53,181 nucleotides of DNA from a virus (IMGVR_UViG_3300022719_000025:1-53181), one strand, 5' to 3'; positions 906 to 53,181 are shown, counted from the first letter of the stretch. Translations and numbers: made by a program. The notes: a model not told the origin generated them from the letters alone.

Positions 906-993
906 GCTCCCGTAGCTCAAAAGGTAGAGCGATCCGAACTCGCTATATGTGCGGATGTAGGAAAGGTTGTAGGTTCGACTCCTACCGGGAGCT
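906..993 (+). tRNA. tRNA-like gene with oversized anticodon region (isotype undetermined; pseudo-tRNA or insertion-containing)
   Basis: Acceptor GCTCCCG/CGGGAGC, D-stem GCTC/GAGC, T-arm GTAGG-TTCGACT-CCTAC; 38 nt between D and T arms instead of about 23; no encoded CCA. Confidence 0.75.
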
Positions 994-5261: not shown

Positions 5262-5739
5262 CGCGGGCGACTATGCCTTGAAAGGATATGAACACGTATG
5301 TCTAGTGGAACGCAAGGGCAGCATGGGAGAGTTGAGCAAGAACCTGTTGTCTCCAGATCGTGGAAGGTTCAACAAGGCTTTCGGACTGTTAATGGAAACG
5401 TGCGAGGAGCCCGTCCTACTGCTGGACTTCTCGATAGCATCGGCGATGAGGCCCAACCGATACTGCCCAAATCCTACCAAGACAATGGACGCACTCCTCC
5501 AGTTAATTTCTCAGAAGATCCCTTCTGGTACATCTGGAACATGCTATGGGAAAAAGACCCGGTTTGGGGTCTTATGGAGCAACGGAAGCAGGGCACACGG
5601 CCCACGGAGAGTCTTGGGGGAGACGATTGCGCGATTGATGCTTCACCACGCTTTAGAGTACGAGGCCACCATCCAGTCGAGAGGTGTAGACATTGACCAG
5701 ATACTTCGAGACGTTGAACAAGATAGCGGAACTAGCTAA
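5122..5739 (+). CDS. ERCC4/XPF-family nuclease (possible junction resolvase)
   Basis: VDTREQ, GDY, ERK motifs; start uncertain (ORF opens at 5047). Confidence 0.85.
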   Translation: MRIIPTAITVLVDTREQRPLLFPATMEVWMVGQKKTVIIKTEKKCLDAGDYALKGYEHVCLVERKGSMGELSKNLLSPDRGRFNKAFGLLMETCEEPVLLLDFSIASAMRPNRYCPNPTKTMDALLQLISQKIPSGTSGTCYGKKTRFGVLWSNGSRAHGPRRVLGETIARLMLHHALEYEATIQSRGVDIDQILRDVEQDSGTS

Positions 5740-6313
5740 CCCATTGAGGATCACAGGGATGAAGGAAAAAGTATATGAAACCAAAGACAGCGGCGAACGG
5801 CGTACCTTTGATACTGGGGCGAGACGGGACACCGCAACAGGGAAAGGTCGCTATGATCTCCTTCCCCCAAAAGCCCTCCATCACCTCGCTCAGTTACTCG
5901 AACGGGGTGCTGACAAGTATGGAGCTAGAAACTGGGAAAAAGGGATGCCGTTGTCGGTGTATCTTAACAGTGCCACGAGGCATCTTTTCCAACTGCTTGC
6001 CCGGCACGACGACGAGGACCACGCAGCGGCTGTACTCTTTAACGTGGCTGCATACATCGAAACACTGGATAAGATCGAAGCTGGTACGCTTCCTGAGGAG
6101 TTGGATGATTTACCCCCGCTCTTGGAAACGGAAGAAAAAAAATCCTTAAAAAACGCCGACGAAAACTTGACCCCCAAAGAAAAACCGGCTAACATCAGCA
6201 GCGACAAAACACACACCGCGTTCCTTCAGTGTTATAGATGTGGCTGTGTACAAGAACATAAGATAGATCATCTAGCCGGACCGACGTGTTTGGCATGTGG
6301 GAGTTCCATTTGA
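5693..6313 (+). CDS. dATP/dGTP diphosphohydrolase-like (DUF5664-type) protein with C-terminal zinc ribbon
   Basis: FDTGARRD...GKGRYDLLP, GADKYGARNWEKGMP, EDHAAAVLFN; CYRC...CLAC at C-terminus; start probably about 5759. Confidence 0.8.
   Translation: MTRYFETLNKIAELANPLRITGMKEKVYETKDSGERRTFDTGARRDTATGKGRYDLLPPKALHHLAQLLERGADKYGARNWEKGMPLSVYLNSATRHLFQLLARHDDEDHAAAVLFNVAAYIETLDKIEAGTLPEELDDLPPLLETEEKKSLKNADENLTPKEKPANISSDKTHTAFLQCYRCGCVQEHKIDHLAGPTCLACGSSI
6167..6195 (+). promoter_or_regulatory. Internal sigma70-type promoter TTGACC-N17-TAACAT for recombination genes
   Basis: -35 at 6167-6172, -10 at 6190-6195, A-tracts upstream. Confidence 0.55.
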
Positions 6314-11070: not shown

Positions 11071-11290
11071 GAGGGACGTGGAGGACGATAAGACTGAAGG
11101 AGGGATCATCATCCCCGAGTCAGGAAAGCGTGACATGAACAGTGGTACAGTGTTGTCAGTCGGGGGTGATGTTGAGTGTGTCAAGGTAAATGATCGTATT
11201 GTTTTCAATATGTATGCCTCTACGTTAGTGACTGTAGAGGGGGAGGACGTTCTCGTTATTGACGTTGACGACATTCTGGTGATTCTATGA
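11039..11290 (+). CDS. groES: GroES-like co-chaperonin
   Basis: KTEGGIIIP mobile loop, GTVLSVG, VKVNDRIVF, DIL; GAGGAG RBS. Confidence 0.92.
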   Translation: MKTIKEKIIVKRDVEDDKTEGGIIIPESGKRDMNSGTVLSVGGDVECVKVNDRIVFNMYASTLVTVEGEDVLVIDVDDILVIL

Positions 11291-11982
11291 AAAAGTACTC
11301 TTTTAAAATTAATACAGCGTCGGGTAGGATGGTCGATCTGTCTGCCCCTTTCCCAGAAACCATCAGCCTATATGACATCAGTCGAGCCCTAGCAAAGCTC
11401 TGTCGATTTACCGGGCATACCGAAGTGTTCTACAGTGTGGCCCAGCACTGTCTGTTCTGTGCCCATCAGGCTAAGCTAATGGGTTATGGTGTGGACGTTC
11501 AGTTGTGGGCTCTGCTCCATGATGCTCATGAGGCTTACTGTAATGATCTCAACAGTCCCTTAAAGAATCTCCTTGGAACTATAGAGAGTGGTGGGATTGG
11601 TAGTTCAGCTTATAGAGAGATAGAGAGGGGCTTACAGTGTGCAATCATCCGTTCCCTTAAGTTGGACGCTAAAAAGTTTCCATCAGAGGAGGCCGATAAA
11701 GCAGTACATGAAATTGATATGGCAGCCTTAACGTGGGAAGCCCGGTTCGCAGTGGGACTAACTCAGTCCAGTCTAAAGGAGCGGGGATTTTACCCAGAAC
11801 TCCTTCAAAAACTCCACGGGATTGACACCACTCCGTGGGGGTTTCAGAGGGATCACGGGGACCGTCCGTGGAGAGAGATTGCTATCTTGTATAAGGATAA
11901 GGCTACTCAACTTGTCCTTGAACTTAGAAAGGGGGTTGGTTCTGGTTTATTCCTTGCTGACGCCCTATCGTCTGAGGGTTGA
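11287..11982 (+). CDS. HD-domain 5'-deoxynucleotidase/phosphohydrolase (YfbR/YfdR-like)
   Basis: CRFTGH, YSVAQH, LLHDAHEAY, DLNSPLK. Confidence 0.88.
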   Translation: MKKYSFKINTASGRMVDLSAPFPETISLYDISRALAKLCRFTGHTEVFYSVAQHCLFCAHQAKLMGYGVDVQLWALLHDAHEAYCNDLNSPLKNLLGTIESGGIGSSAYREIERGLQCAIIRSLKLDAKKFPSEEADKAVHEIDMAALTWEARFAVGLTQSSLKERGFYPELLQKLHGIDTTPWGFQRDHGDRPWREIAILYKDKATQLVLELRKGVGSGLFLADALSSEG

Positions 11983-32887: not shown

Positions 32888-34960
32888 CTATAATGGCCCC
32901 CCAGGTGAAATTCCTGGGGGTATACCGAGCGATTGATTGCCCGGTCTCTGCTGGCCTCCGGCTGCCTGCATTTGGGCAGCTACCTCGGGGGCTGGAAGTC
33001 CGGCTGGGAAGTTCTTTCCTGCCAGAATCTCTAGGTCAGTCTTCCAATTCTCGAAAGCCTCTCGGACTTCCTTGGACGCAAGACTGAACTCAATCTTGTT
33101 CATAAACTGCTGAATCGCAATCAGGTGGATGTCCGGGTTCTGAGTATGTTCTCCTACCTCAGCGGTCCCCGGAGTCTTACCGTCCCTAAACAGCATGATA
33201 ATTTGCCACGTAACCTTTCTCCATGTCTCCCACAACTCCTTGGGGGCCCCTGGCAATTCAAGGTTTTCTTCCAAGGCTGTAATCCAAAACCTTGTAGGAT
33301 CTACAAGACCCATACCTACAAGTTCTTTTAGTTCCTGCGTGCGAACATCACGGTCCTTTGGAGTTCGGTCTTTAATGTCAACTGCCACTTCCCAAGCATT
33401 CGGGATCGGATTGTCCGAGAGACTGAGAAGCCCGGTCTCACGATCAATGACCACGCCAGCGATAGCGTCGTCAATCGTCGCAAGCTCGATGGTCTGACCC
33501 GGAGCAAGTCGCTCCTTTGCCGACTGGAGCATACGTGCGTATACGCCAGTGAAAGCGTCAGCCAAGCCATTAACAGGTAAGCCAAGCGATATGTTTCCCG
33601 TGTTGAATAAGAAGCCCAGCCCGGCAGCCGAGTCAACTCGTCCAGAAGTCTGCCCTTGGAAGATAGGACCTTGCCCAGCAAGATTCTGTAATTGAGCCTG
33701 AGCGAACTCCGCAATCCTCGATGGACCCGTACCGCTGTTGGCTGGTTGTAGGACCTGTGGCGCAATTTTCGGGTCGAGGGGGTCTGGCTCATAGATTTCC
33801 ACCTTCGGTCTGGGCCCTGTCTTCCACTTCTTAATATCCACACCCATACCACCAGTCAGGAACAAAGTACCGAACTGATCCATCTCCTGGATATTCTTGA
33901 ACAGAGCCGACATCATCTTCTCGATCTGGTCGTTGAGAGGAATCAACGGGGCGACGAAGCCTCGGGCAAACATCTTCCCAACGTCCGTGTGTCTTGCTAT
34001 GTGGAGCGGGCACAGAACTTGTATGCCCTGCTCCTCAAAGTCTTCGTCCCATAAGATGGTCTCTCCGGCCTTTATGATGTAGCGGGCTAGGAACTCTTGG
34101 GTGTCGTCGTAAACGTAAATTTCCTCCAGCGGCACATAGAAGCGACCGTCCTTCTTGCGGATGTCGCCTCCCTCCTTAAACCGTTGGTCTGGACTGAGGT
34201 TCGTACCGATCATATCACTGCGTCTGGCCCTCTGCACACTAGTAGTAGCGGCTTGACCTGCATGATTGTTCATGGACTTATCTGGAGGCAATCCCCCCCA
34301 TGATACGTCCTGTGCTCGAAAGCGTTCCATCGGGTTGGTAATTTTGAACTTCTTGTCGTAGACAGTCTTCATCATCGTTTGCAACCAGTCGAGAGGCACC
34401 CACCTTTTTCGTCCGATGGCTGTCAGATTCTCCGAACCGTCTACCCATGCCGGGTAACCCCTCAACTGACGAGGGTGGATGATCTCTACCATGTCGGGGT
34501 TAAGCTCCTCGCCAGTCTCGACATGGCTGATACCCACAGTCCCATACTTCAGGAAGGGAATGATGGCCCTCCGCTTCAGCTTGGTTTGTGGTAACTTGTT
34601 GCTGAGACTCCCAAGGGCTGCATTCGCGATAGCTGCCTTACGCAGAGCCCCCAACGACTCCCCCTTCTTGGAGGCTATCGGGCTAATGTCCATCTTCATG
34701 TAGCGGCCTACCTCAGACAGGTAGACCCTCACAATCTCCTCATACCTCATGTCCAGTTCACCCTTGGAATTCTCGAAAGCAAGGGTCATATTACCGGACC
34801 ATCGGTCCAAAATTTTGAAGCGGCGAACGCCCGACAGGTAAGCGTCAATAATCTTATGACTGGTCAGATGAATGTTGGCCTCTTGCTCGCTGGCAATCGA
34901 CTCCGCATCCAGTGCTTCCACCAGATCAGCCTCTTTCTTGGGGAGATTCATTCTACTCAT
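32888..34960 (-). CDS. Portal protein
   Basis: 690 aa between TerL and scaffold; KYGTVG, ARGFVAPLIPLNDQIEK, GRVDSAAG, Q/P/G-rich tail. Confidence 0.8.
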   Translation of the reverse strand: MSRMNLPKKEADLVEALDAESIASEQEANIHLTSHKIIDAYLSGVRRFKILDRWSGNMTLAFENSKGELDMRYEEIVRVYLSEVGRYMKMDISPIASKKGESLGALRKAAIANAALGSLSNKLPQTKLKRRAIIPFLKYGTVGISHVETGEELNPDMVEIIHPRQLRGYPAWVDGSENLTAIGRKRWVPLDWLQTMMKTVYDKKFKITNPMERFRAQDVSWGGLPPDKSMNNHAGQAATTSVQRARRSDMIGTNLSPDQRFKEGGDIRKKDGRFYVPLEEIYVYDDTQEFLARYIIKAGETILWDEDFEEQGIQVLCPLHIARHTDVGKMFARGFVAPLIPLNDQIEKMMSALFKNIQEMDQFGTLFLTGGMGVDIKKWKTGPRPKVEIYEPDPLDPKIAPQVLQPANSGTGPSRIAEFAQAQLQNLAGQGPIFQGQTSGRVDSAAGLGFLFNTGNISLGLPVNGLADAFTGVYARMLQSAKERLAPGQTIELATIDDAIAGVVIDRETGLLSLSDNPIPNAWEVAVDIKDRTPKDRDVRTQELKELVGMGLVDPTRFWITALEENLELPGAPKELWETWRKVTWQIIMLFRDGKTPGTAEVGEHTQNPDIHLIAIQQFMNKIEFSLASKEVREAFENWKTDLEILAGKNFPAGLPAPEVAAQMQAAGGQQRPGNQSLGIPPGISPGGPL

Positions 34961-35311: not shown

Positions 35312-37180
35312 TTATAGGCACTCGAAAGGGTTGCCCAAATAGTCGTCGTCTAGTCCGTATTCTTCGTGGGCTGCCTCACGCCGTTCGTTGAGGAGCCGGT
35401 CAAGTACATCCGGGGGGATGTCACTCGCGTTTATTCCTGACATACAGGGGATTCCGCAGTACTCGGCTTCCCCGTTGTCGAGTTTCTCTACCAGATTGGC
35501 GGGCTTATAGACATCAGGTGCCTTCGACCTTGACTGTTTGCCAATACACTGGTGCATAGCAAGAGTGTCGAGGCAGTCGTCATGATCGAGGAGTGCCATA
35601 TCTTCAGTAAAGTTTTCGGTTTCGTACCATAGTCTCCGGTAGCCAGCCAAAGTGTCTTTTAGGTGGAGTGGGTACTTAACTCGGAACTGACTGAATCGCC
35701 ATTCCATCCCCAGGAACTTATCCACCTTTTCAACGTGAGGAGGGAACTTGAGGGGAATAACTCTAGGGGCAACTCCCCGTCCGCCTCCGAACATACTGGG
35801 CAACTGATCTTTGACCCGTTCATAGAATTCGCTAAACACCGGGTATGCCTCAACCCCGATGAGAGGGACTTGCCACTTAATCGCCATTTGATAAAGGCGT
35901 CGAACCAATTCTTCATAGCGGACTCGTCCCATCCAGATATCAAGGGAGTAGAGTGTGTCACGATGGTCGTGAGTGTTCTCGAATCCGAGACAATGCACAA
36001 CCGAATAGTCGCTTGTGTCGGTAGTGGTTCGGGCCGTATCGACAGTGATGAACCGTCTCATCCCTCCCAGTACGTCGCTCCATTTACGGATGATCTTACT
36101 CGGGATAGGTCGCTTGTTGTCACCTTCTCCTGTGTACCCTCCGAGTTGGTGGGAGACAACCAACGCCTGAGAGTTGATAGGATCGTCTGTAGCGTTTTGG
36201 TCTACGTCCTCCAGCCAGTAGGTGTTCAATTCCGGGTGAACATCCAAGATTCGTTCTGCATCCGTCGTCGGAGCATTCATGTACTGTGCAGAGAAGGCCG
36301 CTGCCCCCATCTGCTGCTTCATGTCCTGCTGCCATTGCTCGCCCATGACATCCCAGTCCATGTCCTTGATGTTCATCAAGGTTCGTTTCCAGAAGTCACG
36401 GACTCGCTTATCTTTTGTGGTGTATAGCCAGTAGATGAACATACGTCTATGGTATAAAGTCCCGATGATACGCATAGGTATAGTGCCTCCGGGCGATCGG
36501 GACATGGGATAGATGGCGTTAAAGAAGAAGGCTTCAAAGTTTTCCCTCAAATCACTCGGAGTTTGAACCAGATCATCAGACTTTTCCACGTCATCGAACA
36601 CCACGAGGCCAGATGGGCGAGTTCCAAGTGATGCACCAGTGATAGGTATAGCAGTAACTCTACATCCATTTGTCAACTCCATGCAGGAACCGCGATTCCA
36701 GATTCCCGTCCCTCGGGGGGGCTTCAGTTTTCCGAAGTCATCCACGATCAGGGGGTTGTTCTCCACCTGGTCCATCAGACGCCCCAGACGATCTACCGCG
36801 AAATTTCGGGTGCTCAGAAAGAGGGCGCACTCCCAGTAGGTTTTGGAGACGATCTGACTAAGGATGTCCTCCATGTTGATGGTGGTCTTAGCAGTTCCAC
36901 GGGGGGCGGCGTGAACAAGCATCGGGTACTTACTCCAGTCGTGGAGCCACTGGTAATGGCTAACCGGACTTGGAGTGTACCCGTTCTTGTACCACTGATA
37001 CCCCGAGGGAATCAAGTAGGTTTCCCGGAAGAATGCCCATCTGGCCACGTCCAAGTCAGGTCGCCCACCTACACGGCAAGCGTTGACTCGTGCCTTCTTC
37101 TGCCCTTCCTTCGTCAGGCGAGGGTAGTCGGCTGGCAGCGGCCAGAAGGGGTTATTCTTCCGTGGGAAAACTACAGCCAT
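35312..37180 (-). CDS. terL: Terminase large subunit
   Basis: PRGTAKTT Walker A, VVFDDVE Walker B, IIGT, FITVDTA and DYS nuclease motifs, HDDCLD. Confidence 0.93.
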   Translation of the reverse strand: MAVVFPRKNNPFWPLPADYPRLTKEGQKKARVNACRVGGRPDLDVARWAFFRETYLIPSGYQWYKNGYTPSPVSHYQWLHDWSKYPMLVHAAPRGTAKTTINMEDILSQIVSKTYWECALFLSTRNFAVDRLGRLMDQVENNPLIVDDFGKLKPPRGTGIWNRGSCMELTNGCRVTAIPITGASLGTRPSGLVVFDDVEKSDDLVQTPSDLRENFEAFFFNAIYPMSRSPGGTIPMRIIGTLYHRRMFIYWLYTTKDKRVRDFWKRTLMNIKDMDWDVMGEQWQQDMKQQMGAAAFSAQYMNAPTTDAERILDVHPELNTYWLEDVDQNATDDPINSQALVVSHQLGGYTGEGDNKRPIPSKIIRKWSDVLGGMRRFITVDTARTTTDTSDYSVVHCLGFENTHDHRDTLYSLDIWMGRVRYEELVRRLYQMAIKWQVPLIGVEAYPVFSEFYERVKDQLPSMFGGGRGVAPRVIPLKFPPHVEKVDKFLGMEWRFSQFRVKYPLHLKDTLAGYRRLWYETENFTEDMALLDHDDCLDTLAMHQCIGKQSRSKAPDVYKPANLVEKLDNGEAEYCGIPCMSGINASDIPPDVLDRLLNERREAAHEEYGLDDDYLGNPFECL

Positions 37181-40653: not shown

Positions 40654-41134
40654 CTTTCACCTTTCCTGTTTCCATGGATTCCGTATGGGCAGCTTCACTC
40701 ATGGTTCGAGGGTCCTTTTTCTTAGTCTTCTTCTTAGCTTTCTTCTTAGCTTTCTTCTTAGCTTTCTTCTTAGCTTTTTCGGAAGTCTTCTTGTGAGTTT
40801 CAAATGCCTCGCCAAGTTGGGCCCCTAAGGCAGCCCCCGCGAGAGCTCCCCGGAGACCGGCAGTAAATTCCCCCTGTCCTGAGACGGTTGGACCTAAGGA
40901 GGCAGCGGCTGCCGTCAGCTTCTCGGCGGTGGTCTTTTTCTTCTTGCTGGCAGCATTAGCCTTTGCAGCCGGGGACTTTTTCGATCCCTTTCGCTTAACT
41001 GGTCCGGTGTCCAGCTTAGGGATAACCTTCTTGACAGACTTCCTCCGGTTGGCAATCTTCTTTACCGGCTGTTTACTCTTGCCTTGAGTGTTCTGGAACT
41101 CCGCAAACTTTTGTAGGTCACTGTTTCGGGGCAT
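40646..41134 (-). CDS. Lys/Ala-rich histone-H1-like basic protein
   Basis: KAKKKAKKKAKKKAKKK repeat, central glycine zipper GALAGAALGAQLG. Confidence 0.6.
   Translation of the reverse strand: MPRNSDLQKFAEFQNTQGKSKQPVKKIANRRKSVKKVIPKLDTGPVKRKGSKKSPAAKANAASKKKKTTAEKLTAAAASLGPTVSGQGEFTAGLRGALAGAALGAQLGEAFETHKKTSEKAKKKAKKKAKKKAKKKTKKKDPRTMSEAAHTESMETGKVKDD
40716..40779. repeat. 12-bp coding tandem repeat (TTTCTTCTTAGC)n encoding AKKK
   Basis: About 5 copies, outer ones degenerate. Confidence 0.85.
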
Positions 41135-44898: not shown

Positions 44899-45025
44899 AA
44901 TCGTTCTCCATAGGCAGCATCAATTCTAGTGCTATCAACCACGCTATTGAAGCCAACAAACCAACAGATATCATGGCGTACTCCATGAGGGGGTGGGGAG
45001 GGGGCAGTTGTGGGGCTTCGACCAC
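44699..45025 (-). CDS. Small membrane protein with run-on C-terminus
   Basis: GGAGGG RBS; one TM helix. Confidence 0.45.
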   Translation of the reverse strand: MVEAPQLPPPHPLMEYAMISVGLLASIAWLIALELMLPMENDYESNEKINTEGDGRGSNLDSGRQEPDEYMQESRGTDFRGSPENDSEGRSVPIRHAGSRRETDFDEG

Positions 45026-45047
45026 CCCCTCCCTGGAGGGGGACTAC

Positions 45048-45491
45048 TTAAACCTCTCCATCAGTATTCTTCAGGCTCATCTGGGTACGCTTAGGCTTGT
45101 TAACAGCCTTCTTCTTGACTCTATTTACTGCCGATTTGACTTCGGACTTACGAGATTCGGTAGCCTCATCCAACTCAACCAATTTACGAGGATCGTCAAT
45201 AAGATCCACGTGAGTAATGACGCCTACACAATGAACGATCCCACCCGTCTTGAGATCCCCAATAATGTTGAGAATCTTGTCCTGTACGGTCTCCCGACAT
45301 ATCTGATGACTGCCAAAGATGTTGATGGGTATAGTCAATAGTCGCTCGCCATTCTTGTAGCGGAAACTTACACCGCTGGACGGGAACTCCTCTACAAGTG
45401 CAGAAGCAAACTCCGTATACCTGTCATGGTCCAGTGTGATGATCCATCCCATTACCTCTATCGTCTTCGTGATCTTGCTCTTCTCCATCAT
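45048..45491 (-). CDS. Hypothetical protein, basic C-terminus
   Basis: AAGGA RBS; packing. Confidence 0.6.
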   Translation of the reverse strand: MMEKSKITKTIEVMGWIITLDHDRYTEFASALVEEFPSSGVSFRYKNGERLLTIPINIFGSHQICRETVQDKILNIIGDLKTGGIVHCVGVITHVDLIDDPRKLVELDEATESRKSEVKSAVNRVKKKAVNKPKRTQMSLKNTDGEV

Positions 45492-45933
45492 CTAAAAGTC
45501 CTTCCTTTCCATATAGGGCGGGATCTATTTCAATATCGAATTTACCGTCCTCCTCACAATCCTCCATCCCGCAAAACTGGTCAATTGGAGGTGGAACGAA
45601 CTCGAACTTTCCGTCCTCTATAGCAACCTGTCCACCCGACACAAGCTCGTGTGCCCTCGACAGTATTTCCATTAGAGGACACAGTGAGTGAGGGTCGTTT
45701 GCAAATGCGTTTCCAATAAGGTATCCAATAGCGTCTTTCCATACTTGTGTCTTCTGTTCACTCACCATAAAGTGGGTAAGCATAGTAACTGCCTGGACCA
45801 GATGATTCAGGACTATGGCTCCATCCCCGTCGAGGGGGACAGGTCCTCCTTGCCGGTCAACTGCCGCAACAAGGGGGATCCTACTAACTCCATCATCACC
45901 AAGACAGCGTTTACCCTTCATCTCATCCATCAT
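45424..45933 (-). CDS. Hypothetical protein
   Basis: GGAG RBS; packing. Confidence 0.6.
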   Translation of the reverse strand: MMDEMKGKRCLGDDGVSRIPLVAAVDRQGGPVPLDGDGAIVLNHLVQAVTMLTHFMVSEQKTQVWKDAIGYLIGNAFANDPHSLCPLMEILSRAHELVSGGQVAIEDGKFEFVPPPIDQFCGMEDCEEDGKFDIEIDPALYGKEGLLDDGEEQDHEDDRGNGMDHHTGP

Positions 45934-47188
45934 CAGTCTCCATAAGCTCAGTTCCTATGACATAGATAATTTCGTCATAGGAGACTTCCTGTTTAGTTAG
46001 TTTATTGATCCGTATCATCTTGAACTTATTGTAAGGCTCTATGGCGACAATAGGAACCATACGAGCACACATTAAGGACAAGTCGATCTCGTTTCTAGGG
46101 TTAGAGTCCATCTCTGAGTCGAAAGTCAGTAGTCTATCAACAGCAGTGTGATACAGATCATACCATTGTTGGCTAGGCTGGAATTTTAGGGTACTGGCCC
46201 CTGAAGGGATATGAGTACAGAAACTAGCTGCTGTCCCACTAAGAATCTTACTCTCCGCAAGGGAATAAAAATTCCCATCAGGAGATTTTGTCAAAACACC
46301 TGTACATGGGTCAGTTAAAGGACCGTTCCACACATCCTTGTGCCACCCAGCCCATTGGGGCATGATAGGTACGTGCCCAGCTTTAGCGGTTTCGACTATC
46401 CTATCTACAATCTGTTTTGGGTACGTATGCAGATAGCGATCAATACTCTCAAGGACCGGAACTGTAAGGCCAGTAATCTTGCCCATGGATTTTAAGGTAT
46501 GGAAGAAGCTACTGTGTTCAGAGGCCTGTGACGGAGGCCTACCAAAACAATCAGGATACAGCTCAATAAGTATGTCTTCAGTAACTTTCCTGTAGTTGGA
46601 CGGCCAATGATGATCTGGGTGAGGTGTCCCAGCATGACTTTGTAAGAACCTTAAGAAAGACTGTATGTCTCCAATCTCATTCCTCAATTCTTCGGACTCT
46701 GCATACTTCTTCATGAGGGCTGAAACGAATACGGTCCAGTTGTTTATACCTCCTAAGCCATAGCCCATCTTTAGTGACCATTGAGACAGTTTCAGACTAT
46801 TGACCTTTTCTTTCCAGTTATTCAGGTTCTCGGCATGTTCCTCCCATATATCTACTGCTACTAGGGCAAAGCCCATAGACCAGTTTACATTACTTGGTGT
46901 CTCATCTACAAGACAAGTATGGTCTCCCCGTAGGGTGTTAAATTCTGTCACGAACTCTAAACGACCTTTACTATCGAACGTGTAGTTATCCCTTCCTCTG
47001 AACCAAGCTGGGGAGCTACACCATAGGAATTCCTTATACCTCCCGTTCGGTATGGCGGATACATTACCCGTCATATTCTTACTGATGTTACGCTGAAGAG
47101 GAGACTTCATGGCCCTACCCATCTCTATCGTTTCCGTCCCATACTCGACAGGTGTAGTATTTAGTGGGACCATCCTAGTGCTAGGCAT
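45923..47188 (-). CDS. Hypothetical protein immediately downstream of the JAB gene
   Basis: 421 aa, AGGAGG RBS, 3 bp after the JAB stop; no family recognised. Confidence 0.65.
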   Translation of the reverse strand: MPSTRMVPLNTTPVEYGTETIEMGRAMKSPLQRNISKNMTGNVSAIPNGRYKEFLWCSSPAWFRGRDNYTFDSKGRLEFVTEFNTLRGDHTCLVDETPSNVNWSMGFALVAVDIWEEHAENLNNWKEKVNSLKLSQWSLKMGYGLGGINNWTVFVSALMKKYAESEELRNEIGDIQSFLRFLQSHAGTPHPDHHWPSNYRKVTEDILIELYPDCFGRPPSQASEHSSFFHTLKSMGKITGLTVPVLESIDRYLHTYPKQIVDRIVETAKAGHVPIMPQWAGWHKDVWNGPLTDPCTGVLTKSPDGNFYSLAESKILSGTAASFCTHIPSGASTLKFQPSQQWYDLYHTAVDRLLTFDSEMDSNPRNEIDLSLMCARMVPIVAIEPYNKFKMIRINKLTKQEVSYDEIIYVIGTELMETDDG

Positions 47189-47191
47189 TAC

Positions 47192-48373
47192 TTAACCTCC
47201 TTTCTTGGAGAGTGCAAAAGGTCGAACTGTCAGCGATTCAGGGATTAGTACTCCCGAATTATTGAAGATCTTAACCTCTCTAGCCCAGTCTTCGTGAGAC
47301 ATAATGTAATTTAGGCCGTTATACTGGACACATACCATAGCACTAAGTTCCTCGTTGGAGACACAAGCAGACGGTGTATCTCTGAGCATACGCTCAAAGA
47401 AGTCCATATCACTCTCATTGCCCCAATTCTTTTCCCACCAATGAGGCTCGTTGATATCAATGATGGCCCCTGAACCGCGACGGTCGGTAATCTTGTATTT
47501 CTTACCACCTCTATTGGTCCTGCCTTTACCGTGCCCGTAGAAGTCGATATGTACTGGCTTGGGTTCACGCAAAAGGCTGGCCAATTCTCGCCCATAGGTT
47601 TCCAGTGGAACCCTGACGCTACTGGTCTTTGGCATCTTACCCTCATCCAGACGGACTACGTGTCCATAGGATGATCCATGCAGGGTCCAGTCTCCGTTAC
47701 GTCCGAAAATCAAGTGCAGTCCGGACTGTTCCCGTTCTTCCCATGACTCAAGGTCCACGGAGGATGGGCTAGCAGAGTTACCTGGGTGTACATGAACCGT
47801 TCCAATCCACCGGGCCACTTTAACCATCTTGTCCATTGCTATTGGATCTTTCCAGTCGATGGAGCCGGGAGTGCCCTCTTGATCCGGAACGACGTAGACA
47901 TACCCGGATTTGTCCCGTTTCTCTCCTATGATGTACATAACCTCTCGGTCGTACTTAGAAAGGAAATTTTTAAATAGGTACTTCAACTCTCCCCAAGGAG
48001 GGAGCTTGGACTCATCGTACCCACAGTACACTAATTCGGGTTTCATTCTCTGGTCAGGGGTGATAGGACACACAATCTGGAGGAGTCCCTGTGTCCGACG
48101 ATAAGACCGACCGTCCTTACCAATGAAAGTTTCTCCAAACCCCGGTAACTCACCTACTGTAGCCAGAGGTTCCCATTCCTCTATACTGAGAAGTGGTTTA
48201 TTTTTAGTCTTCGTAGTCAATGTCTTCCTCCCCCCCAACGGCGACTGGCTCGTCGGTATTGATGTCTTCTTCTGTGATTTCGCTGACCTGTCTGAGAGGC
48301 TTGACGACCGATTGCCATGTCCTAAGCCCCTTTTCTTCATCCATCGCCCAATAAAACTCCAGAAACTCATCAT
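47192..48373 (-). CDS. JAB/MPN+ (JAMM) metallo-isopeptidase, prokaryotic Ubl-system type
   Basis: Exact JAMM motif E...H-V-H-x7-S-x2-D (REV...GTVHVHPGNSASPSSVD), VPDQ motif, GLHLIFG. Confidence 0.88.
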   Translation of the reverse strand: MMSFWSFIGRWMKKRGLGHGNRSSSLSDRSAKSQKKTSIPTSQSPLGGRKTLTTKTKNKPLLSIEEWEPLATVGELPGFGETFIGKDGRSYRRTQGLLQIVCPITPDQRMKPELVYCGYDESKLPPWGELKYLFKNFLSKYDREVMYIIGEKRDKSGYVYVVPDQEGTPGSIDWKDPIAMDKMVKVARWIGTVHVHPGNSASPSSVDLESWEEREQSGLHLIFGRNGDWTLHGSSYGHVVRLDEGKMPKTSSVRVPLETYGRELASLLREPKPVHIDFYGHGKGRTNRGGKKYKITDRRGSGAIIDINEPHWWEKNWGNESDMDFFERMLRDTPSACVSNEELSAMVCVQYNGLNYIMSHEDWAREVKIFNNSGVLIPESLTVRPFALSKKGG

Positions 48374-49100
48374 AATTACCCTCCAAAATATGCCGTTTCA
48401 GAACATGTTCGATAGCCCGAGCGAGCAAAGTGCCCGTAATCTGATTACTAAGTACAGTTTGTTCTCCACACTTTGGACGTTCAGGAGCCTCTCGACCATT
48501 GCCAATATCGGTATGCAACGGTAAGAAGTTATGAACTGGGTCTCCATCCTCCCAAATTCCGTAGTATACTTGGCCAAACTCCTCATCACAGCCCGTCATA
48601 TACACAATAACCCGTCCATCCTCGTACTCCTGAGCAGCCTTAACACAGGCCAGACGGGCATGGTCACAGTCCACGTTTACCACCAAATGCAGAGTGTTCT
48701 CAACAATGCCGAATAGATGGGCCTCAGCATCAAAGAACTCAGAGTGGAATAGTGTTAGGGCCTCTCCATGGTTCATGTTGTAGTTGCGTCCTGCCACTCG
48801 ATTCAAGGCTAATATCGCCTTGTATGCCATCAAATCACCCTCACGGATTCCGTGGTAGGCAAGGTGTTGAGCTTCTGGGCACCATTGCCGAGAGAGGTTT
48901 TTGGGTTCAATCCAGTCCGGGTCGATGAACTTGATGCACGAAGGAACTCGACGGTTCACGAGTTGACTCAGAAAAGGAGTCGAGGTCCAGAATGTTCCAC
49001 CACACCCAACAAACACCCATGCTTCTCCGTGATTCTTGATCGATAGGGAGTCCCGATCACTCGGAATATTACCCGGTACTACCTTCATCTTCGCTACCAT
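48204..49100 (-). CDS. ThiF/MoeB/E1-like adenylyltransferase (PRTRC-ThiF-like)
   Basis: FVGCGGT, IDPDWIEPKNLSRQ, YKA, VD...AR, GQV, and C-terminal C-x2-Q-x4-N (PKCGEQTVLSN). Confidence 0.88.
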   Translation of the reverse strand: MVAKMKVVPGNIPSDRDSLSIKNHGEAWVFVGCGGTFWTSTPFLSQLVNRRVPSCIKFIDPDWIEPKNLSRQWCPEAQHLAYHGIREGDLMAYKAILALNRVAGRNYNMNHGEALTLFHSEFFDAEAHLFGIVENTLHLVVNVDCDHARLACVKAAQEYEDGRVIVYMTGCDEEFGQVYYGIWEDGDPVHNFLPLHTDIGNGREAPERPKCGEQTVLSNQITGTLLARAIEHVLKRHILEGNYDEFLEFYWAMDEEKGLRTWQSVVKPLRQVSEITEEDINTDEPVAVGGEEDIDYED

Positions 49101-49425
49101 AGTAGTTCTCCTCCAGTTCTAAAAGGTTGGGCCAGTGAGGGTTCTTTCTAAGCCAATCTTTATCTTTCTTAGTGAAGAACTGACTTTCCCCAATGTATTC
49201 GTTAAATCTACCTAGTCGTCGTGGGCTATATACCACCACTTTGCGATCAGTATCTACAATGACGGACTTCTTATTAATCCTCATAGACTCACCACTCGGG
49301 AAGACTAGATAAAGTCCTAACCCTTCTCGCCCTCCTCCGTCGGCGATAGCGGCGCCGCACAGGTACTCTTTAGTGTACCCACCGGGCGTGTATATCTTCG
49401 CCCTGAACATGCCCACAGGTCCCAT
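49069..49425 (-). CDS. Hypothetical protein
   Basis: 118 aa, AAGGAGG RBS, directly upstream of E1. Confidence 0.6.
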   Translation of the reverse strand: MGPVGMFRAKIYTPGGYTKEYLCGAAIADGGGREGLGLYLVFPSGESMRINKKSVIVDTDRKVVVYSPRRLGRFNEYIGESQFFTKKDKDWLRKNPHWPNLLELEENYYGSEDEGSTG

Positions 49426-49608
49426 CTAACCTCCTTCTACATCGATCATTACCCTACTTCCAAAATCAAACAACACGGGGTTCTTTTCTTCTTCAGTGCT
49501 CCACCAACTAGACTCAGAATTCCATTCCTCCTTCCTAGTAATTTTAACGGGAAGTTCTGGATCATACTTTTGGAGTTCTTTTATCATATCCCTTACAGTC
49601 ATAACCAC
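49426..49608 (-). CDS. Small hypothetical phage protein (MTVRDMIKELQKYDPELPV)
   Basis: N-terminus typical of small phage early proteins. Confidence 0.65.
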   Translation of the reverse strand: MVMTVRDMIKELQKYDPELPVKITRKEEWNSESSWWSTEEEKNPVLFDFGSRVMIDVEGG

Positions 49609-49685
49609 ACCCCCCTAAAGACTGGGAAAGAGGAGGGAGGGAACATAAGTTCCCATCCCCCCAACGTCTCCCCCGAGACTACGAA

Positions 49686-49756
49686 AGCCCTGTCCGGGAA
49701 TTGAACCCGGCCCTCCCGACGCGTGCAATCGGGTGTGCAACGTACACCATCAGGGC
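49686..49756 (-). tRNA. tRNA-like element (Cys-like GCA in a 9-nt loop; degenerate)
   Basis: GCCCTGA-TG-GTGT-ACGTT-GCAC-A-CCCGA-TTGCACGCG-TCGGG-AGGG-CCGGG-TTCAATT-CCCGG-ACAGGGC-T. Confidence 0.7.
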
Positions 49757-49850
49757 AAAGAAGAACCCTGTTCCCACTTCATCGTCCCACCGTAGCATGG
49801 GTTCCATGGGCAGGGTTCTCGGCCCTTACCTAGAGCTAGTACGGTTAACT

Positions 49851-50078
49851 CTAGGCGGCCTGTTTGCCACCTTGGGCGACAATGGTTACTTCGTCATTGG
49901 GGTTCAACGTCGTACCGGTGTTTGCCGGAGTTCCATTCACTCGAACGCTAGCAGACTCGGCCTTGATGCCACGGAGGTGTCCATCCGAAAAGAGGGCATT
50001 CACCGTGGAGCCGGGGTCCACCTTCGTAGTAATGAACTCTCCACCAAACTCTACAGACACAATCATCTTCTCATCCAT
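49851..50078 (-). CDS. Ubiquitin-like (ThiS/MoaD-type beta-grasp) protein
   Basis: 75 aa; PGSTVNAL, VRVNG, LNPNDEVTIV, ends AQGGKQAA; GAGGAG RBS. Confidence 0.85.
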   Translation of the reverse strand: MDEKMIVSVEFGGEFITTKVDPGSTVNALFSDGHLRGIKAESASVRVNGTPANTGTTLNPNDEVTIVAQGGKQAA

Positions 50079-50137
50079 AGTAACACTCCTCTACCCCTTG
50101 CAAGGGCTCTAAAGTTCTCCGGGTTCTCGGCCCCGGA

Positions 50138-50575
50138 TTATTCACAGTCGCATATCTTACCCAACGGACTATCGTTACACAAACATAGGTTCACTGCATT
50201 CGGCAATAATGGTTCAATCAAGTGCAGGTCATACAGATCCGTGTCACAGTCGTGGTCTACGTCGTGGGTGTTGACCCCACAGTTACCAGGCCCGCTCATC
50301 CTACAGAACATACCAGACATTAGAGCTAGTACACAGCAGTTGGATTGCTGCCTGTCCGGCAGGTTACACATCTCCACTTGTGCCCACCAGTCCTGAAATA
50401 CACTAGGCTTCCACTTCATATACAGATCACCCCCCTCTGCTACCTCCTCTAAAGGGGGGGAGTCTATACAGCCTCCTACAAGGAAAGGAAAAGCTGGTAG
50501 AAGTACGGCCTGTAGCATACCGGCATACAAGAGGACTCTCCACAAGGTGTCATACTTTGTCCTGCACATATACAT
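50138..50575 (-). CDS. Cys-rich lipoprotein with EF-hand/dockerin-like Ca-binding loop
   Basis: FPFLVGG-C lipobox-like signal; DVDHDCDTDLYDL; about 10 further Cys. Confidence 0.55.
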   Translation of the reverse strand: MYMCRTKYDTLWRVLLYAGMLQAVLLPAFPFLVGGCIDSPPLEEVAEGGDLYMKWKPSVFQDWWAQVEMCNLPDRQQSNCCVLALMSGMFCRMSGPGNCGVNTHDVDHDCDTDLYDLHLIEPLLPNAVNLCLCNDSPLGKICDCE

Positions 50576-51032
50576 TCTCCAGAAGCTCTGCGAGTTCGTC
50601 GTAGGTAAAGGCCAATGGGTTGTCTACATTGTAAGACTCCTTCTTTGGTCCTCTACTCAATCCGATCTTCACAGGACTTGCACCTAGTACGAAGCAGATT
50701 GAGTCAGTCTTGGGGACTATCCCCAGAGCCTCGGAATCCTTTTTCCATTCATCACCCTCGTTTACCCCATAGGCCCTTTCAATCACATCTCTCATGGTGG
50801 GTGGATGTAGTAGTTGGAAAGCCTCATCCCCAATCCACTCATTGATATTAGCCAAGAGATCACTCTCCGACTGTCCAACTGAGGAGAGGTACTTCCCCTC
50901 TGGGGAAAAGACCCACTTGCACCCGCCCTCTATACGGCGGTACATATCAGCCAGTATCTCAAGAGGACTTTTCTCCTCAGTCTTTTGGGACTTCAACATA
51001 CCCGCCCACATCCTAGCAATCTCTGGTTTCAT
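50550..51032 (-). CDS. Hypothetical protein
   Basis: 160 aa; packing. Confidence 0.6.
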   Translation of the reverse strand: MKPEIARMWAGMLKSQKTEEKSPLEILADMYRRIEGGCKWVFSPEGKYLSSVGQSESDLLANINEWIGDEAFQLLHPPTMRDVIERAYGVNEGDEWKKDSEALGIVPKTDSICFVLGASPVKIGLSRGPKKESYNVDNPLAFTYDELAELLENVYVQDKV

Positions 51033-51037
51033 AGCAT

Positions 51038-51844
51038 CTAACCTACCTTCCCTTCCAAATACTGAAACAGTCTATCAATCTGCCACATCCTTTCTTCCCG
51101 CATAGTTCCAGCAGCAGAAGTCCTAGCAGCAGCCTCAGCAGCAGCCCTAGTAGCTTCCCAAGCATAAGCGCCAGCGGACTCCCTACCATAAGCCCCATCA
51201 GCAGCCTCAGCAGCAGCCCTATCAGCAGCCCAAGTAGCAGCCTCAGCAGCAGCAGAAGTCCTATCAGCAGCCTCAGCAGCAGTCTCAGTAGACCCAGCAG
51301 TCTCAGTAGCAGCCCTAGAAGCAGCCCAAGTAGCAGCCCTAGAAGCAGCCCAAGTAGCAGCCCTAGCAGCAGCCTCAGCAGCAGTCTCAGTAGACCCAGC
51401 AGTCTCAGTAGCAGCAGCAACAGCCCAAGTAGAATTCAAGTCTTTTAGGCTACAGTCCCCCCTTAGGAAGTTCCTAGTGGCGATCAGTAGATTTTGGTCC
51501 TCTGGATGCTTATTTAGGTGTCTTACTCTTTCAGCACAATCAAGACTAAATAAGGCTGTAGTTCTACTGTTCCAATTATTAAGGCGAGTAGTCAGCCTAG
51601 CCCGAGAAAACACTATTTTATCTTCGCATTTGACACAAGAACCTCCGCCCTCAGCCTCATAAATCTCGGGACCTAACCATTCTATCAAATGCTCTCTGGA
51701 AACCAGATGGTATCCAGACACACAAGGGTTGAGAGTTTCTACTTCAGGCATCCACTCTCCCGGGCCTTTCTCAGTAGGGAGGGACCATACAAAGTTTGAG
51801 TAAATACCTCTACCACCGACTCCTGTAGTTTTATAATACTTCAT
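51038..51844 (-). CDS. Phage protein with Ala-rich AAxAA/TWAA repeats (DUF7666/Imm5-like architecture)
   Basis: PCVSGYH...KIVFSRAR...DCAERV then Ala repeats; start MKYYK at 51844 with GGAGAGG RBS. Confidence 0.7.
   Translation of the reverse strand: MKYYKTTGVGGRGIYSNFVWSLPTEKGPGEWMPEVETLNPCVSGYHLVSREHLIEWLGPEIYEAEGGGSCVKCEDKIVFSRARLTTRLNNWNSRTTALFSLDCAERVRHLNKHPEDQNLLIATRNFLRGDCSLKDLNSTWAVAAATETAGSTETAAEAAARAATWAASRAATWAASRAATETAGSTETAAEAADRTSAAAEAATWAADRAAAEAADGAYGRESAGAYAWEATRAAAEAAARTSAAGTMREERMWQIDRLFQYLEGKVG
51108..51430. repeat. Low-complexity coding repeats (GCA-rich) encoding Ala-rich units
   Basis: Repeated units such as AATWAASR and ATETAGSTETAAEAA (two copies). Confidence 0.85.
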
Positions 51845-51956
51845 ACCCTCTCCCCTGTAGTAGTGTTTAGTGTGGGGGGCGGTTGGCGAAAGTATTCTGT
51901 CCCTTACTGGCCAACCGCCCCTTTTTTTCGGCGTGCAAAATTTTGCCGCCACCCAA

Positions 51957-51984
51957 AGCATACAATCAAAATTCAAAAAGTCAA
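51957..51984 (-). promoter_or_regulatory. Probable sigma70 promoter TTGACT-N16-TATGCT for the accessory gene block
   Basis: -35 at 51979-51984, -10 at 51957-51962, A-tracts upstream. Confidence 0.55.
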
Positions 51985-52070
51985 ACTTTCGGCAAAAGTT
52001 TTTTTTCGCCCGATAAAAGGGTCGGAGCGTCGTCGTTGGATGGTTTTTTATCGGAGGCGTCCGAAAAAAA

Positions 52071-52385
52071 TCAAGCGTCTCTTAGAGAGGTACTGATTCT
52101 TCGGAGGAGGGTAGGATTCTGTTTGATAAAAAGAGAGAGAGCTTCCCCAAGGAGGCCAACTACTAGTTCTTCGTTATCTAGGTTAGTGCCTTGTAGAATA
52201 GCATGTAGGCACTCGTGAATGAGTACCTCTACTTTTCGAGAAGTCGGCAGGGATTCATCTATGGTAATGGTTAAAGCACCTATGTCACAGTGCCCCAGAC
52301 AGTCTCGTCCAGGCATCTTAGATGTAGGACGTTCTTTGATAGAATAGGAATGGGTCCCTACCTTAACGGTCTTTGGAAGTAGCAT
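52071..52385 (-). CDS. Small HEXXH zinc-metallopeptidase-like protein (ImmA/IrrE-like fold)
   Basis: LGHCD...ITID...VLIHECLHAI...NEE. Confidence 0.75.
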   Translation of the reverse strand: MLLPKTVKVGTHSYSIKERPTSKMPGRDCLGHCDIGALTITIDESLPTSRKVEVLIHECLHAILQGTNLDNEELVVGLLGEALSLFIKQNPTLLRRISTSLRDA

Positions 52386-52665
52386 TTCTCTCCCCCAATA
52401 GACTTGCTAGTTGTACTCGAAGGTCCTGGATCTCCTTATTCCCGGCCTTAACATCCTTCTTGAGTTCGTCCATACCTTCGGTGAGATGGATGAGGGTTTT
52501 GAGAACCATTTTACGATCCTCTACGTAGGGAGACCCTCTATCTATCATTTCTACTACTTCAGCACGGGTAGGTAGATCGGGGAGAATCAAGAACATGGTA
52601 CCTGCTAGAGTGATTACACCACTACTAACGGAAGCTACTACGATCTTGAGCATCTCCAATTTCAT
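52363..52665 (-). CDS. Single-TM plus coiled-coil protein (holin-like candidate)
   Basis: IVVASVSSGVITLAGTMFLIL TM then coiled coil. Confidence 0.5.
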   Translation of the reverse strand: MKLEMLKIVVASVSSGVITLAGTMFLILPDLPTRAEVVEMIDRGSPYVEDRKMVLKTLIHLTEGMDELKKDVKAGNKEIQDLRVQLASLLGERNATSKDR

Positions 52666-53030
52666 TAGTCAATCCAACCAACCACCACTACGGCATCTAG
52701 GTCATCACCAGCATTTTGAGTCACGAAGGATACCCGATTTACTGATAGTCGTCCTTCAAGGGTTACGTCTATAGTTGCACCAGCCGCAACGGACCAGTAA
52801 GCCACCCCGTCGTCATCTGAGTCCCCATCGAAGTCATTAGCTGCCAAGGCGTTGACTTTTACAAGTAGGGCTGCATTAGCTCCGGTAGGATTGTGGACTA
52901 GGCACGTTCTGACAGGTTTTGGGTCCGGACTGGAGAACCTCACTACCCGAGGGGCAGTTGCATCATTGTCCGTTCCAGCAGTCTCAATGTGGTCTTGTCC
53001 ATTTACAGGCGAACCGCCTCGAATACTCAT
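52665..53030 (-). CDS. Putative small structural beta-sandwich protein
   Basis: 121 aa D/A/V-rich, AAGGAG RBS; follows 665..75 across the circular junction. Confidence 0.55.
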   Translation of the reverse strand: MSIRGGSPVNGQDHIETAGTDNDATAPRVVRFSSPDPKPVRTCLVHNPTGANAALLVKVNALAANDFDGDSDDDGVAYWSVAAGATIDVTLEGRLSVNRVSFVTQNAGDDLDAVVVVGWID

Positions 53031-53033
53031 AAG

Positions 53034-53181
53034 GTCTTCTCCTTAAAGGAGAGTCCCGGAGAGGACTGGCCTCTCCGGAACTGTAACTTGACATTGCCCA
53101 TCGTACCCTACAGAACTCGGAGACAGCGAACCCAAACGTCCACCTCGGCACCATCATTGGTAGCACCTGCCGTAGCGTCAG
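53034..53181. repeat. Terminal direct repeat, right copy
   Basis: Matches 1-148 (one mismatch). Confidence 0.95.

Follow-up and report, generated by a model that had tools for sequence, protein, structure and literature searches.

In prokaryotes, ubiquitin-like proteins (Ubls) that are encoded together with an E1-type adenylating enzyme and a JAB-type peptidase act as sulfur carriers, as protein modifiers in archaea and, as has emerged since 2022-2024, in anti-phage defenses that tag phage or immune proteins. The SAMP/UbaA/JAMM1, TtuB/TtuC, QbsCDE, and CysO/Mec+ systems each consist of a single ThiS/MoaD-like β-grasp protein, a minimal E1, and a JAMM peptidase. Here, we describe a module of this kind that belongs to a phage. 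It lies in IMGVR_UViG_3300022719_000025, a virus record of 53,181 nt that we analyzed over its whole length (positions 1-53181; referred to below as the window), and it comprises genes for a Ubl, a ThiF-type E1, and a JAMM peptidase, together with two companion proteins that we call X and Y.

Several viral proteins have been described that bear on such a module. Lambda and T1 encode, among their tail-assembly proteins, TAPI, a Ubl with a conserved C-terminal glycine, and TAPK, in which a JAB domain is joined to NlpC/P60, as set out in the available text of Iyer et al. (2006; PMC1779556). PRTRC genes are carried by the temperate Burkholderia phages AB2 and BgVeeders33, according to the available text of a 2026 report (PMC13366799). 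For Asgard archaeal viruses (Nidhogg), the accessible part of another report proposes that ThiF/E1-like proteins act on ubiquitin-like systems (10.1101/2021.07.29.454249). In the literature that we searched, which consisted of open-access main texts and no supplements, we found no description of a phage set of tailed Ubl, E1, and JAMM peptidase.

The window encodes together a Ubl, an E1 with a complete set of adenylation residues, and a JAMM peptidase with an intact active site, and in a phage lineage the three have been kept together. We see roughly an even chance that they form a self-contained, phage-encoded pathway by which a Ubl is matured, activated, and conjugated. The full Ubl set belongs to the virus, has been kept through deep divergence, and includes two proteins that match no family. 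This suggests that phages carrying the set tag proteins themselves, beyond being tagged by bacterial defenses.

The Ubl, the E1, and the JAMM peptidase

A first-pass annotation had proposed co-oriented genes for these three proteins. We found all three open reading frames (ORFs) on the minus strand where it had placed them (Table 1), and profile and structure searches supported the three folds. The AlphaFold2 model of the Ubl, built from an alignment of three sequences, has a mean predicted local distance difference test (pLDDT) score of 81.4; the tail, residues 71-75, is the sole low-confidence part (pLDDT < 50). When this model was compared with the PDB using Foldseek, the top matches were exclusively ubiquitin-type β-grasp structures (TMq 0.61-0.74). 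They included an At2g32350 UBL (E-value 2.8e-4), ubiquitin, ISG15, Mth1743, Caldiarchaeum ubiquitin, and SAMP1, confirming the β-grasp fold for the modeled protein. A word-index protein search with the Ubl returned only the Ubl itself.

The C terminus of the Ubl has two parts. One glycine, G71 in the window, is invariant in all eight aligned Ubls, and three to six residues lie beyond it in each. The residue before this glycine is serine in five Ubls, glycine in two, and histidine in one; the residue after it is lysine in six, arginine in one, and glutamine in one, with two to five more to follow. The tails vary in length, identity, and last residue, and a ninth Ubl, that of G008, ends in GG-RLA. 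As encoded, none of the eight homologues has the reactive glycine at its extreme C terminus. In our reading of the model, G71 is placed relative to the last strand much like the terminal Gly-Gly of ubiquitin and of ThiS/MoaD. Since variable tails extend beyond an invariant G71, the encoded C terminus cannot be the conserved reactive end, and activation by the E1 would require trimming. We infer that the Ubl is a precursor, for which the adjoining JAMM peptidase is the obvious trimming candidate; a small HExxH protein, described below, could be an alternative trimming enzyme. In the available text of a study of the Bil (bacterial ISG15-like) system (10.1101/2023.09.04.556158), 12 BilA homologues are reported to have short overhangs past their terminal glycine, and for prokaryotic JAB-Ubl pairs, the available text of Iyer et al. 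(2006; PMC1779556) proposes that the JAB protein exposes the Ubl C terminus.

A trimmed Ubl might equally be used to carry sulfur. In that case, the Ubl, trimmed by the JAMM peptidase and adenylated by the E1, would be converted to a thiocarboxylate by a host sulfurtransferase and no protein would be tagged; the sulfur would go into a product particular to the phage, for example a modified nucleotide, a tRNA base, or a small molecule. This is the main rival to conjugation, and we judge it unlikely. In thioquinolobactin synthesis (QbsCDE) and in CysO/Mec+, residues past the Ubl glycine occur with a JAMM peptidase and a ThiF-type E1, a layout that the phage module matches. Among ThiS/MoaD sulfur carriers, it is unusual for the terminal glycine to be preceded by serine or histidine, a feature that does occur in conjugating Ubls. 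To our knowledge, sulfur carriers keep Gly-Gly, and the presence of serine or histidine at this position in six of the eight phage Ubls argues against a sulfur carrier. On the other side, ThiS/MoaD-JAB-E1 clusters that contain sulfur assimilation genes are listed in the available text of Iyer et al. (2006; PMC1779556).

The E1 carries no rhodanese, E2, or JAB fusion. The lack of a rhodanese domain is a further point against sulfur transfer. The minimal ThiF/MoeB-like domain is a point for it, as are the weak NCBIfam matches of its relatives, which include ThiF and MoeB. A profile built from the window E1 and four homologues matched SUMO E1 subunit 2 (2.2e-6), MccB (7.9e-5), UBA5 (1.1e-4), and Uba1 (5e-3) in the PDB. 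Pfam ThiF was matched by all five family members at E ≤ 0.1 (best E-value 6.4e-7), and precomputed PF00899 assignments exist for three of the four homologues. The adenylation motifs and candidate catalytic Cys noted in the first-pass annotation proved to be conserved: the G32-x-G34-G35 loop, D60, R71-Q72, K94, and D144 show no variation across the 41 aligned members, and C211 is retained in at least 90% of them. We take the glycine loop to contact the nucleotide, D60 the ribose, and D144 Mg, with R71-Q72 providing the Arg finger and K94 the Lys of the site. By these residues and the family profile, the window E1 belongs to the ThiF/MoeB/E1 superfamily. A HMMER search over 1.84 billion representative proteins returned 2162 relatives at E ≤ 0.001, 245 at E ≤ 1e-10, and 30 at E ≤ 1e-30, most of the relatives being stand-alone proteins of ~230-300 amino acids (aa). 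A complex prediction for the E1 and the Ubl cut to residues 1-71 (score 0.12, mark 0.32) weighs neither way.

For the JAMM peptidase, the ORF that was annotated first, 47192-48373, exists and is the longest possible, but the gene most likely starts further in, at the TTG at 48220. The first 51 codons of the longer ORF overlap the E1 gene in another frame and have no counterpart in relatives, and the TTG is preceded by a Shine-Dalgarno-like stretch, GGGAGGA. The resulting 342-aa form is the public gene call P0006, and the public call P0008 agrees as well. With this start, the gene overlaps the E1 stop by 17 nt; in L002, the JAB gene is arranged likewise, starting at a GTG behind a Shine-Dalgarno-like site. 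We considered an E1-JAB frameshift fusion and rejected it, as relatives have ordinary 4-nt stop/start overlaps.

The JAMM metal-binding motif is complete, as had been claimed: E93, H143, H145, S153, and D156 (342-aa numbering) are invariant in 10 of 10 relatives. The AlphaFold2 model has a mean pLDDT of 50.2 overall and of ~70-85 in the core (residues ~70-220). Foldseek placed the CBASS protein Cap3 first (9ild, 6.7e-5), followed by Sst2/AMSH, Rpn11, and PfJAMM1; there were 22 matches at E ≤ 0.001, and among the matches listed all are JAMM/MPN proteins. Using VIA-align, the model aligned to AMSH (Z 10.5, root-mean-square deviation [rmsd] 3.5, 127 residues aligned), to PfJAMM1 bound to SAMP2 (Z 10.1, rmsd 2.6, 113 aligned), and to 8tyx, a bacterial Ubl-deubiquitinase complex (Z 8.3). 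These structural matches cover model residues ~65-223 only, and the JAMM core is flanked by ~65 further residues on its N-terminal side and ~120 on its C-terminal side. For the modeled core, the MPN fold and an intact JAMM site are confirmed. Sequence profile matches to JAMM proteins in the PDB were marginal (E 0.11-0.46), and the top row, BfpB (E 0.03), has no relation to them; the assignment to JAMM was settled by the fold search. In NCBIfam, the closest match is Cap3 (1.2e-4, 22.3 bits against a cut-off of 200), and 13 PADLOC JAB models matched (best E-value 6.9e-5). Relatives of the protein gave weak matches to the tail-protein family phrog_5556 (1.3e-4 and 1.9e-3), and a BFVD search indicated that many phages encode JAB-domain proteins.

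The resemblance to Cap3 is one ground for supposing, as the first-pass annotation had, that the module counters host defenses, the JAMM peptidase stripping the Ubl or CD-NTase conjugates of Bil or type II CBASS while the phage Ubl and E1 serve as decoys or competitors. NCBIfam, PADLOC, and Foldseek all place Cap3 among the best matches, and the alignment to 8tyx points the same way. A phage tail protein is the target of Bil in the available text of its description (10.1101/2023.09.04.556158), which also fits. However, the JAB matches fall far below the family cut-offs and are limited to the shared catalytic core. Moreover, a mere eraser would need neither its own E1 nor a tailed Ubl and Y, all of them translationally coupled. 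We consider counter-defense quite improbable.

Gene order and conservation among related phages

Word-index searches identified four E1 relatives and four JAB relatives, and profile-guided scans then provided contigs with gene context. One relative, G001, is 54.4 kb long and has terminal repeats (loci L001, L004, and L013; L005 is a near-copy). Further relatives were the short metagenome contigs L002 and L003, as well as G002-G006 and G008. The order of genes is constant: Ubl, a small ORF, E1, JAB, and a large protein. The Ubl gene is upstream of the E1 gene in all nine contigs with enough upstream DNA (the window, G001, L003, G002-G006, and G008), and the JAB gene is downstream of the E1 gene in all eight verified contigs with downstream DNA (the window, G001, L002, G002-G005, and G008). 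L005, which has the same ORF lengths, was left out of the JAB count, and L003 and G006 end before JAB. The E1 and JAB genes overlap by 4 nt in contigs L009-L011, as do the JAB and Y genes in L011 and L012; E1, JAB, and Y are translationally coupled. The first-pass annotation had noted neither this coupling nor the Ubl tail, nor proteins X and Y. Recurrence of one gene order in contigs that are independent of each other puts the module beyond chance. A tblastn search of 50,697 GenBank phage records returned no match for E1, JAB, or P0017.

The pairing of Ubl and E1 also speaks to the idea that the E1 acts on the C terminus of a peptide or of some other protein, as MccB and PaaA do, with the β-grasp protein only a scaffold. 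MccB is indeed among the best profile matches of the E1 in the PDB. Yet in nine of nine contigs the E1 comes with a β-grasp protein whose glycine is placed as in ubiquitin, and the cassette contains no conserved short precursor-peptide gene. We give this idea almost no credence.

The module is conserved over considerable distances. Terminase identity to the window is 63% for G008, 49-51% for G002-G005, and 30-32% for G001, whose DNA polymerase is 35% identical to that of the window. The module is present in every one of the seven genomes that are complete or nearly so (completeness 92-100%). When a 20-kb stretch of G001 at the module was compared by blastp with all window ORFs, only terminase, JAB, E1, and Ubl were recovered. 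In both the window and G001, the module is encoded on the same strand as the terminase, between that gene and the divergent polymerase. Ten further terminase relatives yielded an E1 in G008 alone; seven of the blanks are fragments (24-75% completeness) and say little. The first-pass annotation had assigned the module to an accessory block; this does not hold, as the module occupies the same position in relatives with terminases 30-63% identical. Judged from these comparisons, the module is core to the phage lineage, not accessory. A fixed position kept through deep divergence fits a core function better than an exchangeable anti-defense gene, and syntenic conservation over this range, unlike the variability of anti-defense genes, is a further argument against counter-defense. 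Since the module is deeply conserved and heads the packaging and structural transcription unit, we expect its function to lie in the cycle of the phage itself, in virion assembly or host take-over, and not in swappable counter-defense.

Other searches for relatives were less informative. Viral-contig scans with the JAB and X profiles found no relative; their back-translated patterns were too narrow, as relatives exist that were found with the E1 profile. Contig scans with one genome per species also found none, and since they needed exact peptide patterns they are weak; the 522-kb NCBI contig holding P0017 was missed as well. In L009-L012, the cassette is preceded by arrays of ORFs (~175-290 aa) that are paralogs of one another and resemble each other at the C terminus; their window counterparts would be at 75-695 and 52665-53030 (both minus strand).

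The window is the whole virus record, with a CheckV completeness of 99%. The record is classed as linear, though its 148-nt terminal repeat indicates a complete genome. Replication genes occupy the plus strand and include a PD-(D/E)XK exonuclease and a Sak4-like ATPase. The minus strand is a single long unit that runs from ~700, through the terminal repeat, to 11924 and also encodes a β-helix protein. The first-pass annotation was right that a virus owns the set: the genome is that of a complete phage, with polymerase A, terminase, and a P22-like portal. It had also described the phage as apparently lytic, which agrees with our Pfam and PHROGs scans of the window ORFs, in which we found no integrase or other lysogeny family. 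Compared with 50,697 GenBank phage records, the terminase matched only Bacillus phage BalMu-1 (22.5% identity, three records); the phage is distant from cultured phages.

These features bear on whether the module is a phage-carried defense that excludes superinfecting phages, a Bil-like system tagging the structural proteins of competitors. Bacterial Ubl-E1-E2-JAB operons are anti-phage systems in the available text of their description (10.1101/2023.09.04.556158), and the portion available of the PRTRC report places E1 cassettes such as PRTRC on mobile elements and in temperate phages (PMC13366799). However, the phage has no detected lysogeny genes, and the deeply conserved module has a fixed place in the late-strand operon of a lineage that seems virulent. 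In addition, E1, Ubl, X, and Y have no PADLOC match. We regard superinfection exclusion as very unlikely.

Several smaller features of the window genome deserve mention. The tRNA-Val gene and the 60-aa ORF between Ubl and X are insertions particular to this genome, since Ubl and X adjoin in L003 and G008. A terminator-like hairpin, 49662-49637, lies just past the tRNA-Val gene and is not above chance; a promoter and terminator scan of 45000-53181 found fewer sites than in shuffled sequence. A 312-aa protein (51038-51976, minus strand), situated between the HExxH gene and Ubl in the window genome only, matches phrog_18326 weakly, and its C-terminal half is an alanine-rich array encoded by 12-nt-periodic repeats in 14 overlapping copies. 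Other 12-nt tandem repeats (family D2) are found at 40704-40799 (minus strand), within a small minus-strand ORF. Possibly, the phage DNA contains non-canonical nucleotides, given the set of UDG-fused PolA, metallophosphoesterase, diphosphohydrolase domain, and dNMP phosphatase.

Table 1. Positions of the module genes, their key residues, and other features in the window and, where named, in related contigs
Feature	Size	Position	Strand	Remarks
Ubl precursor, single β-grasp	75 aa	49851..50078	-	AlphaFold2 and Foldseek
Ubl conserved glycine, G71		49866-49868	-	
Ubl tail, K-Q-A-A	4 residues after G71	49854-49865	-	
ThiF/E1-type adenylating enzyme	298 aa	48204..49100	-	Stand-alone; profile and Pfam
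E1 candidate catalytic Cys, C211		48468-48470	-	
JAMM/MPN+ metallopeptidase	342 aa	47192..48220	-	TTG start 48220
JAB catalytic residues, E...HxHx7Sx2D		~47753-47944	-	
Protein X	118 aa	49069..49425	-	3' end overlaps E1 start
Protein Y	421 aa	45923..47188	-	Starts 3 nt past JAB stop
Y N288		46325-46327	-	
Y C295		46304-46306	-	
Small HExxH protein	104 aa	52071..52385	-	Three ORFs away from Ubl
HExxH homologue, L003		250-582		
HExxH homologue, L010		4526-4831		
HExxH homologue, L011		2755-3060		
HExxH homologue, L012		4620-4919		
HExxH homologue, L049		6813-7130	-	
JAB protein of G001	702 aa	L001 8908-11016		Four C-x5-C pairs in C-terminal extension
Protein after JAB in G001	1206 aa	L001 11007-14627		No family match
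tRNA-Val (CAC)		49686-49756	-	Between Ubl and X
Short ORF	60 aa	49426-49608	-	Between Ubl and X; N terminus matches several small PHROG families
Large terminase		35312-37180	-	
P22-like portal		32888-34960	-	
Family A DNA polymerase		1232-3847	+	N-terminal UDG-superfamily (UDG-like) domain
Metallophosphoesterase		3816-4598	+	
dATP/dGTP diphosphohydrolase N-terminal domain		5693-6313	+	
dNMP phosphatase		11287-11982	+	
tRNA-Ser (CGA)		906-993	+	Divergent region separating the two transcription units
Direct terminal repeat	148 nt	1-148 and 53034-53181		99% identical

Proteins X and Y and the transfer of the Ubl

Protein X lies between Ubl and E1 in the window, L002, L003, L011, G004, and G008, and is characterized by a conserved C-terminal block (W-L..N.H-W-P..L-E-L) and an acidic tail. 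In other lineages, an unrelated short acidic coiled-coil ORF is in this position. X matched nothing in Pfam, PHROGs, NCBIfam, PADLOC, or, with a profile, the PDB, and Atlas gave nothing usable. Having no invariant Cys, X is an unlikely E2.

Protein Y is directly 3' of JAB in seven of eight lineages, with homologues in L002, L009, L010, L011, L012, and G008. Its C-terminal half is conserved and contains invariant N288 and C295 within an N-G-P-x3-P-C-T-G block. An Asn placed shortly ahead of a single catalytic Cys resembles the active site of an E2, which we treat as a lead only. Y had no match in Pfam and, with a profile, none in the PDB; the best PDB row, a relaxase (E 0.12), was taken as chance. 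The Atlas model, with a pLDDT of 0.30, was useless. In L009, L011, and L012, Y ends in CxxC clusters, and the matches of these Cys-rich tails to IBR and B-box zinc fingers (E 0.09-0.23, one of six members each) were not significant.

A small HExxH protein is also found near the module. The window protein matches phrog_1233 (E-value 3.1e-17) and, weakly, Pfam DUF6782, SprT-like, and M78. Homologues of ~100 aa are encoded just upstream of Ubl in L003, L009-L012, and G008. The protein may be another peptidase that belongs to the module, or simply a neighbor with no relation to it.

If the module conjugates its Ubl, we envisage the following pathway. The Ubl would be made as a precursor, and the JAMM peptidase would cut after G71 to free a tail of three to six residues. 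The E1 would adenylate the exposed glycine with ATP and possibly hold the Ubl as a thioester on C211, after which the Ubl would be attached to a lysine on a protein of the phage or the host. Transfer might be direct, as in the E2-less systems of archaea and Thermus, or might proceed through the Asn...Cys block of Y, acting as a non-homologous E2/E3; Y or X could also be helpers. The same JAMM peptidase would reverse the modification. That the module is a complete tagging pathway in which Y is a new Cys-bearing transfer protein with no sequence relation to E2 or E3 enzymes, acting on virion or host proteins as a core step of infection, is a more specific proposal, which we hold tentatively and consider rather less than probable.

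A number of results weigh against conjugation. Taken singly, the window proteins match their Pfam families below the cut-offs: the Ubl matches ThiS with an E-value of 0.05 (14.6 bits against 22.5), the E1 matches ThiF (PF00899) with 0.037 (13.6 against 28.1), and the JAB protein matches Prok-JAB (PF14464) with 9.6e-4 (19.5 against 25). A ThiF search of the window's own record gave no match at E ≤ 0.001 (0 of 1). No E2 or E3 was detected in X, Y, or the neighboring ORFs using Pfam, including its prokaryotic E2 families, NCBIfam, and PADLOC. The putative role of the Asn...Cys pair of Y rests on one conserved block in six sequences, and the G001 lineage has no Y, its JAB gene being followed by a non-homologous protein of 1206 aa. 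The complete genomes G010 (terminase 29% identical) and G013 (26%) contain no E1, so the wider group does not carry the module throughout. Lastly, a tailed Ubl with a JAMM peptidase and an E1 is a known layout of sulfur carriers as well.

Conjugation and sulfur transfer can also be compared by what surrounds the module. The lack of a detectable E2 and the hints of unusual DNA chemistry from the diphosphohydrolase domain, the dNMP phosphatase, and the UDG-fused PolA favor a sulfur carrier. Against it, Pfam scans of 56 window ORFs (13 ORFs searched at E ≤ 0.1 and 43 at E ≤ 0.001) revealed no thiamine, molybdopterin, cysteine-synthase, rhodanese, sulfurtransferase, PP-loop thiolase, MoaE, ThiG, or CysM-like family, in line with the first-pass annotation, which had reported no genes for a sulfur role; host enzymes could substitute for the missing sulfur-transfer and sulfur-acceptor families. 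Further, the constant partner of the Ubl, E1, and JAB genes is Y, which has no enzyme family match, and not a sulfur acceptor.

If conjugation is correct, ubiquitin-like tagging would be a weapon or tool of bacterial viruses and not of cells only. Y could then be a new type of Ubl-transfer protein, and the whole a compact system of four or five genes. If instead the Ubl is a sulfur carrier, phages would make a sulfur-containing product that is so far unknown.

Comparison with described systems

By E1 sequence, the nearest named relative is PRTRC, the ParB-related, ThiF-related cassette found on plasmids, ICEs, and some temperate phages. TIGR03736 (PRTRC_ThiF) is the top NCBIfam match of the window E1 (E-value 0.016) and of its relatives (down to 6e-10), and among 31 E1-family proteins scanned, it is the top match in 11 of the 14 with any match. 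Both are E1s of mobile elements. However, the window E1 scores 14.5 bits against a cut-off of 144.75, only one of the 31 members passes, and 17 of the 31 have no NCBIfam match at E ≤ 1e-5. By the pattern of scores across the 31, the phage E1 clade is a sister group that has no name of its own and merges gradually into PRTRC ThiF. The partners differ as well. Neither ParB nor any of the PRTRC proteins A, B, C, E, and F was found in the 37 cassette proteins (12 + 25) or the window ORFs scanned; here, the E1 is accompanied by a Ubl with a tail, a JAMM protein of considerable length, X, and Y.

Like the Bil and Bub operons, the phage module unites a Ubl, an E1, and a JAB-type deubiquitinase, and in the available text some BilA proteins also have overhangs. 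Unlike these operons, the module belongs to a phage and not to a cell, no E2 was found in it by the searches given above, and PADLOC does not match its E1, Ubl, X, or Y. The phage Ubl is a single β-grasp domain, whereas BilA has two in the text available (10.1101/2023.09.04.556158). With type II CBASS, the module shares a JAMM core that is nearest to Cap3 by NCBIfam, PADLOC, and Foldseek, and a ThiF-type partner enzyme. In contrast to type II CBASS, the window has no CD-NTase family and no E1-E2 fusion, and the Ubl is a separate protein. Cap3 is ~150-160 aa long, whereas the phage JAB protein has 342 aa with N- and C-terminal extras.

The E2-independent and sulfur-carrier systems resemble the module in structure: the PfJAMM1-SAMP2 complex is the second-best structure match of the JAB protein, and SAMP1 is among the matches of the Ubl. 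Here, however, the system is viral, all Ubl homologues have a tail, the penultimate residue is often Ser or His, the window has no sulfur-pathway genes, and X and Y are present in addition. As in Lambda and T1, a phage encodes both a Ubl and a JAB peptidase. The TAPI/TAPK pair, though, has no E1, whereas the module lies outside the tail block and its peptidase lacks NlpC/P60. The Asgard archaeal viruses, in the accessible part of their description, encode E1 homologues only and are presumed to use the Ubl and E2 of the host, whereas the phage described here encodes its own Ubl and peptidase alongside the E1.

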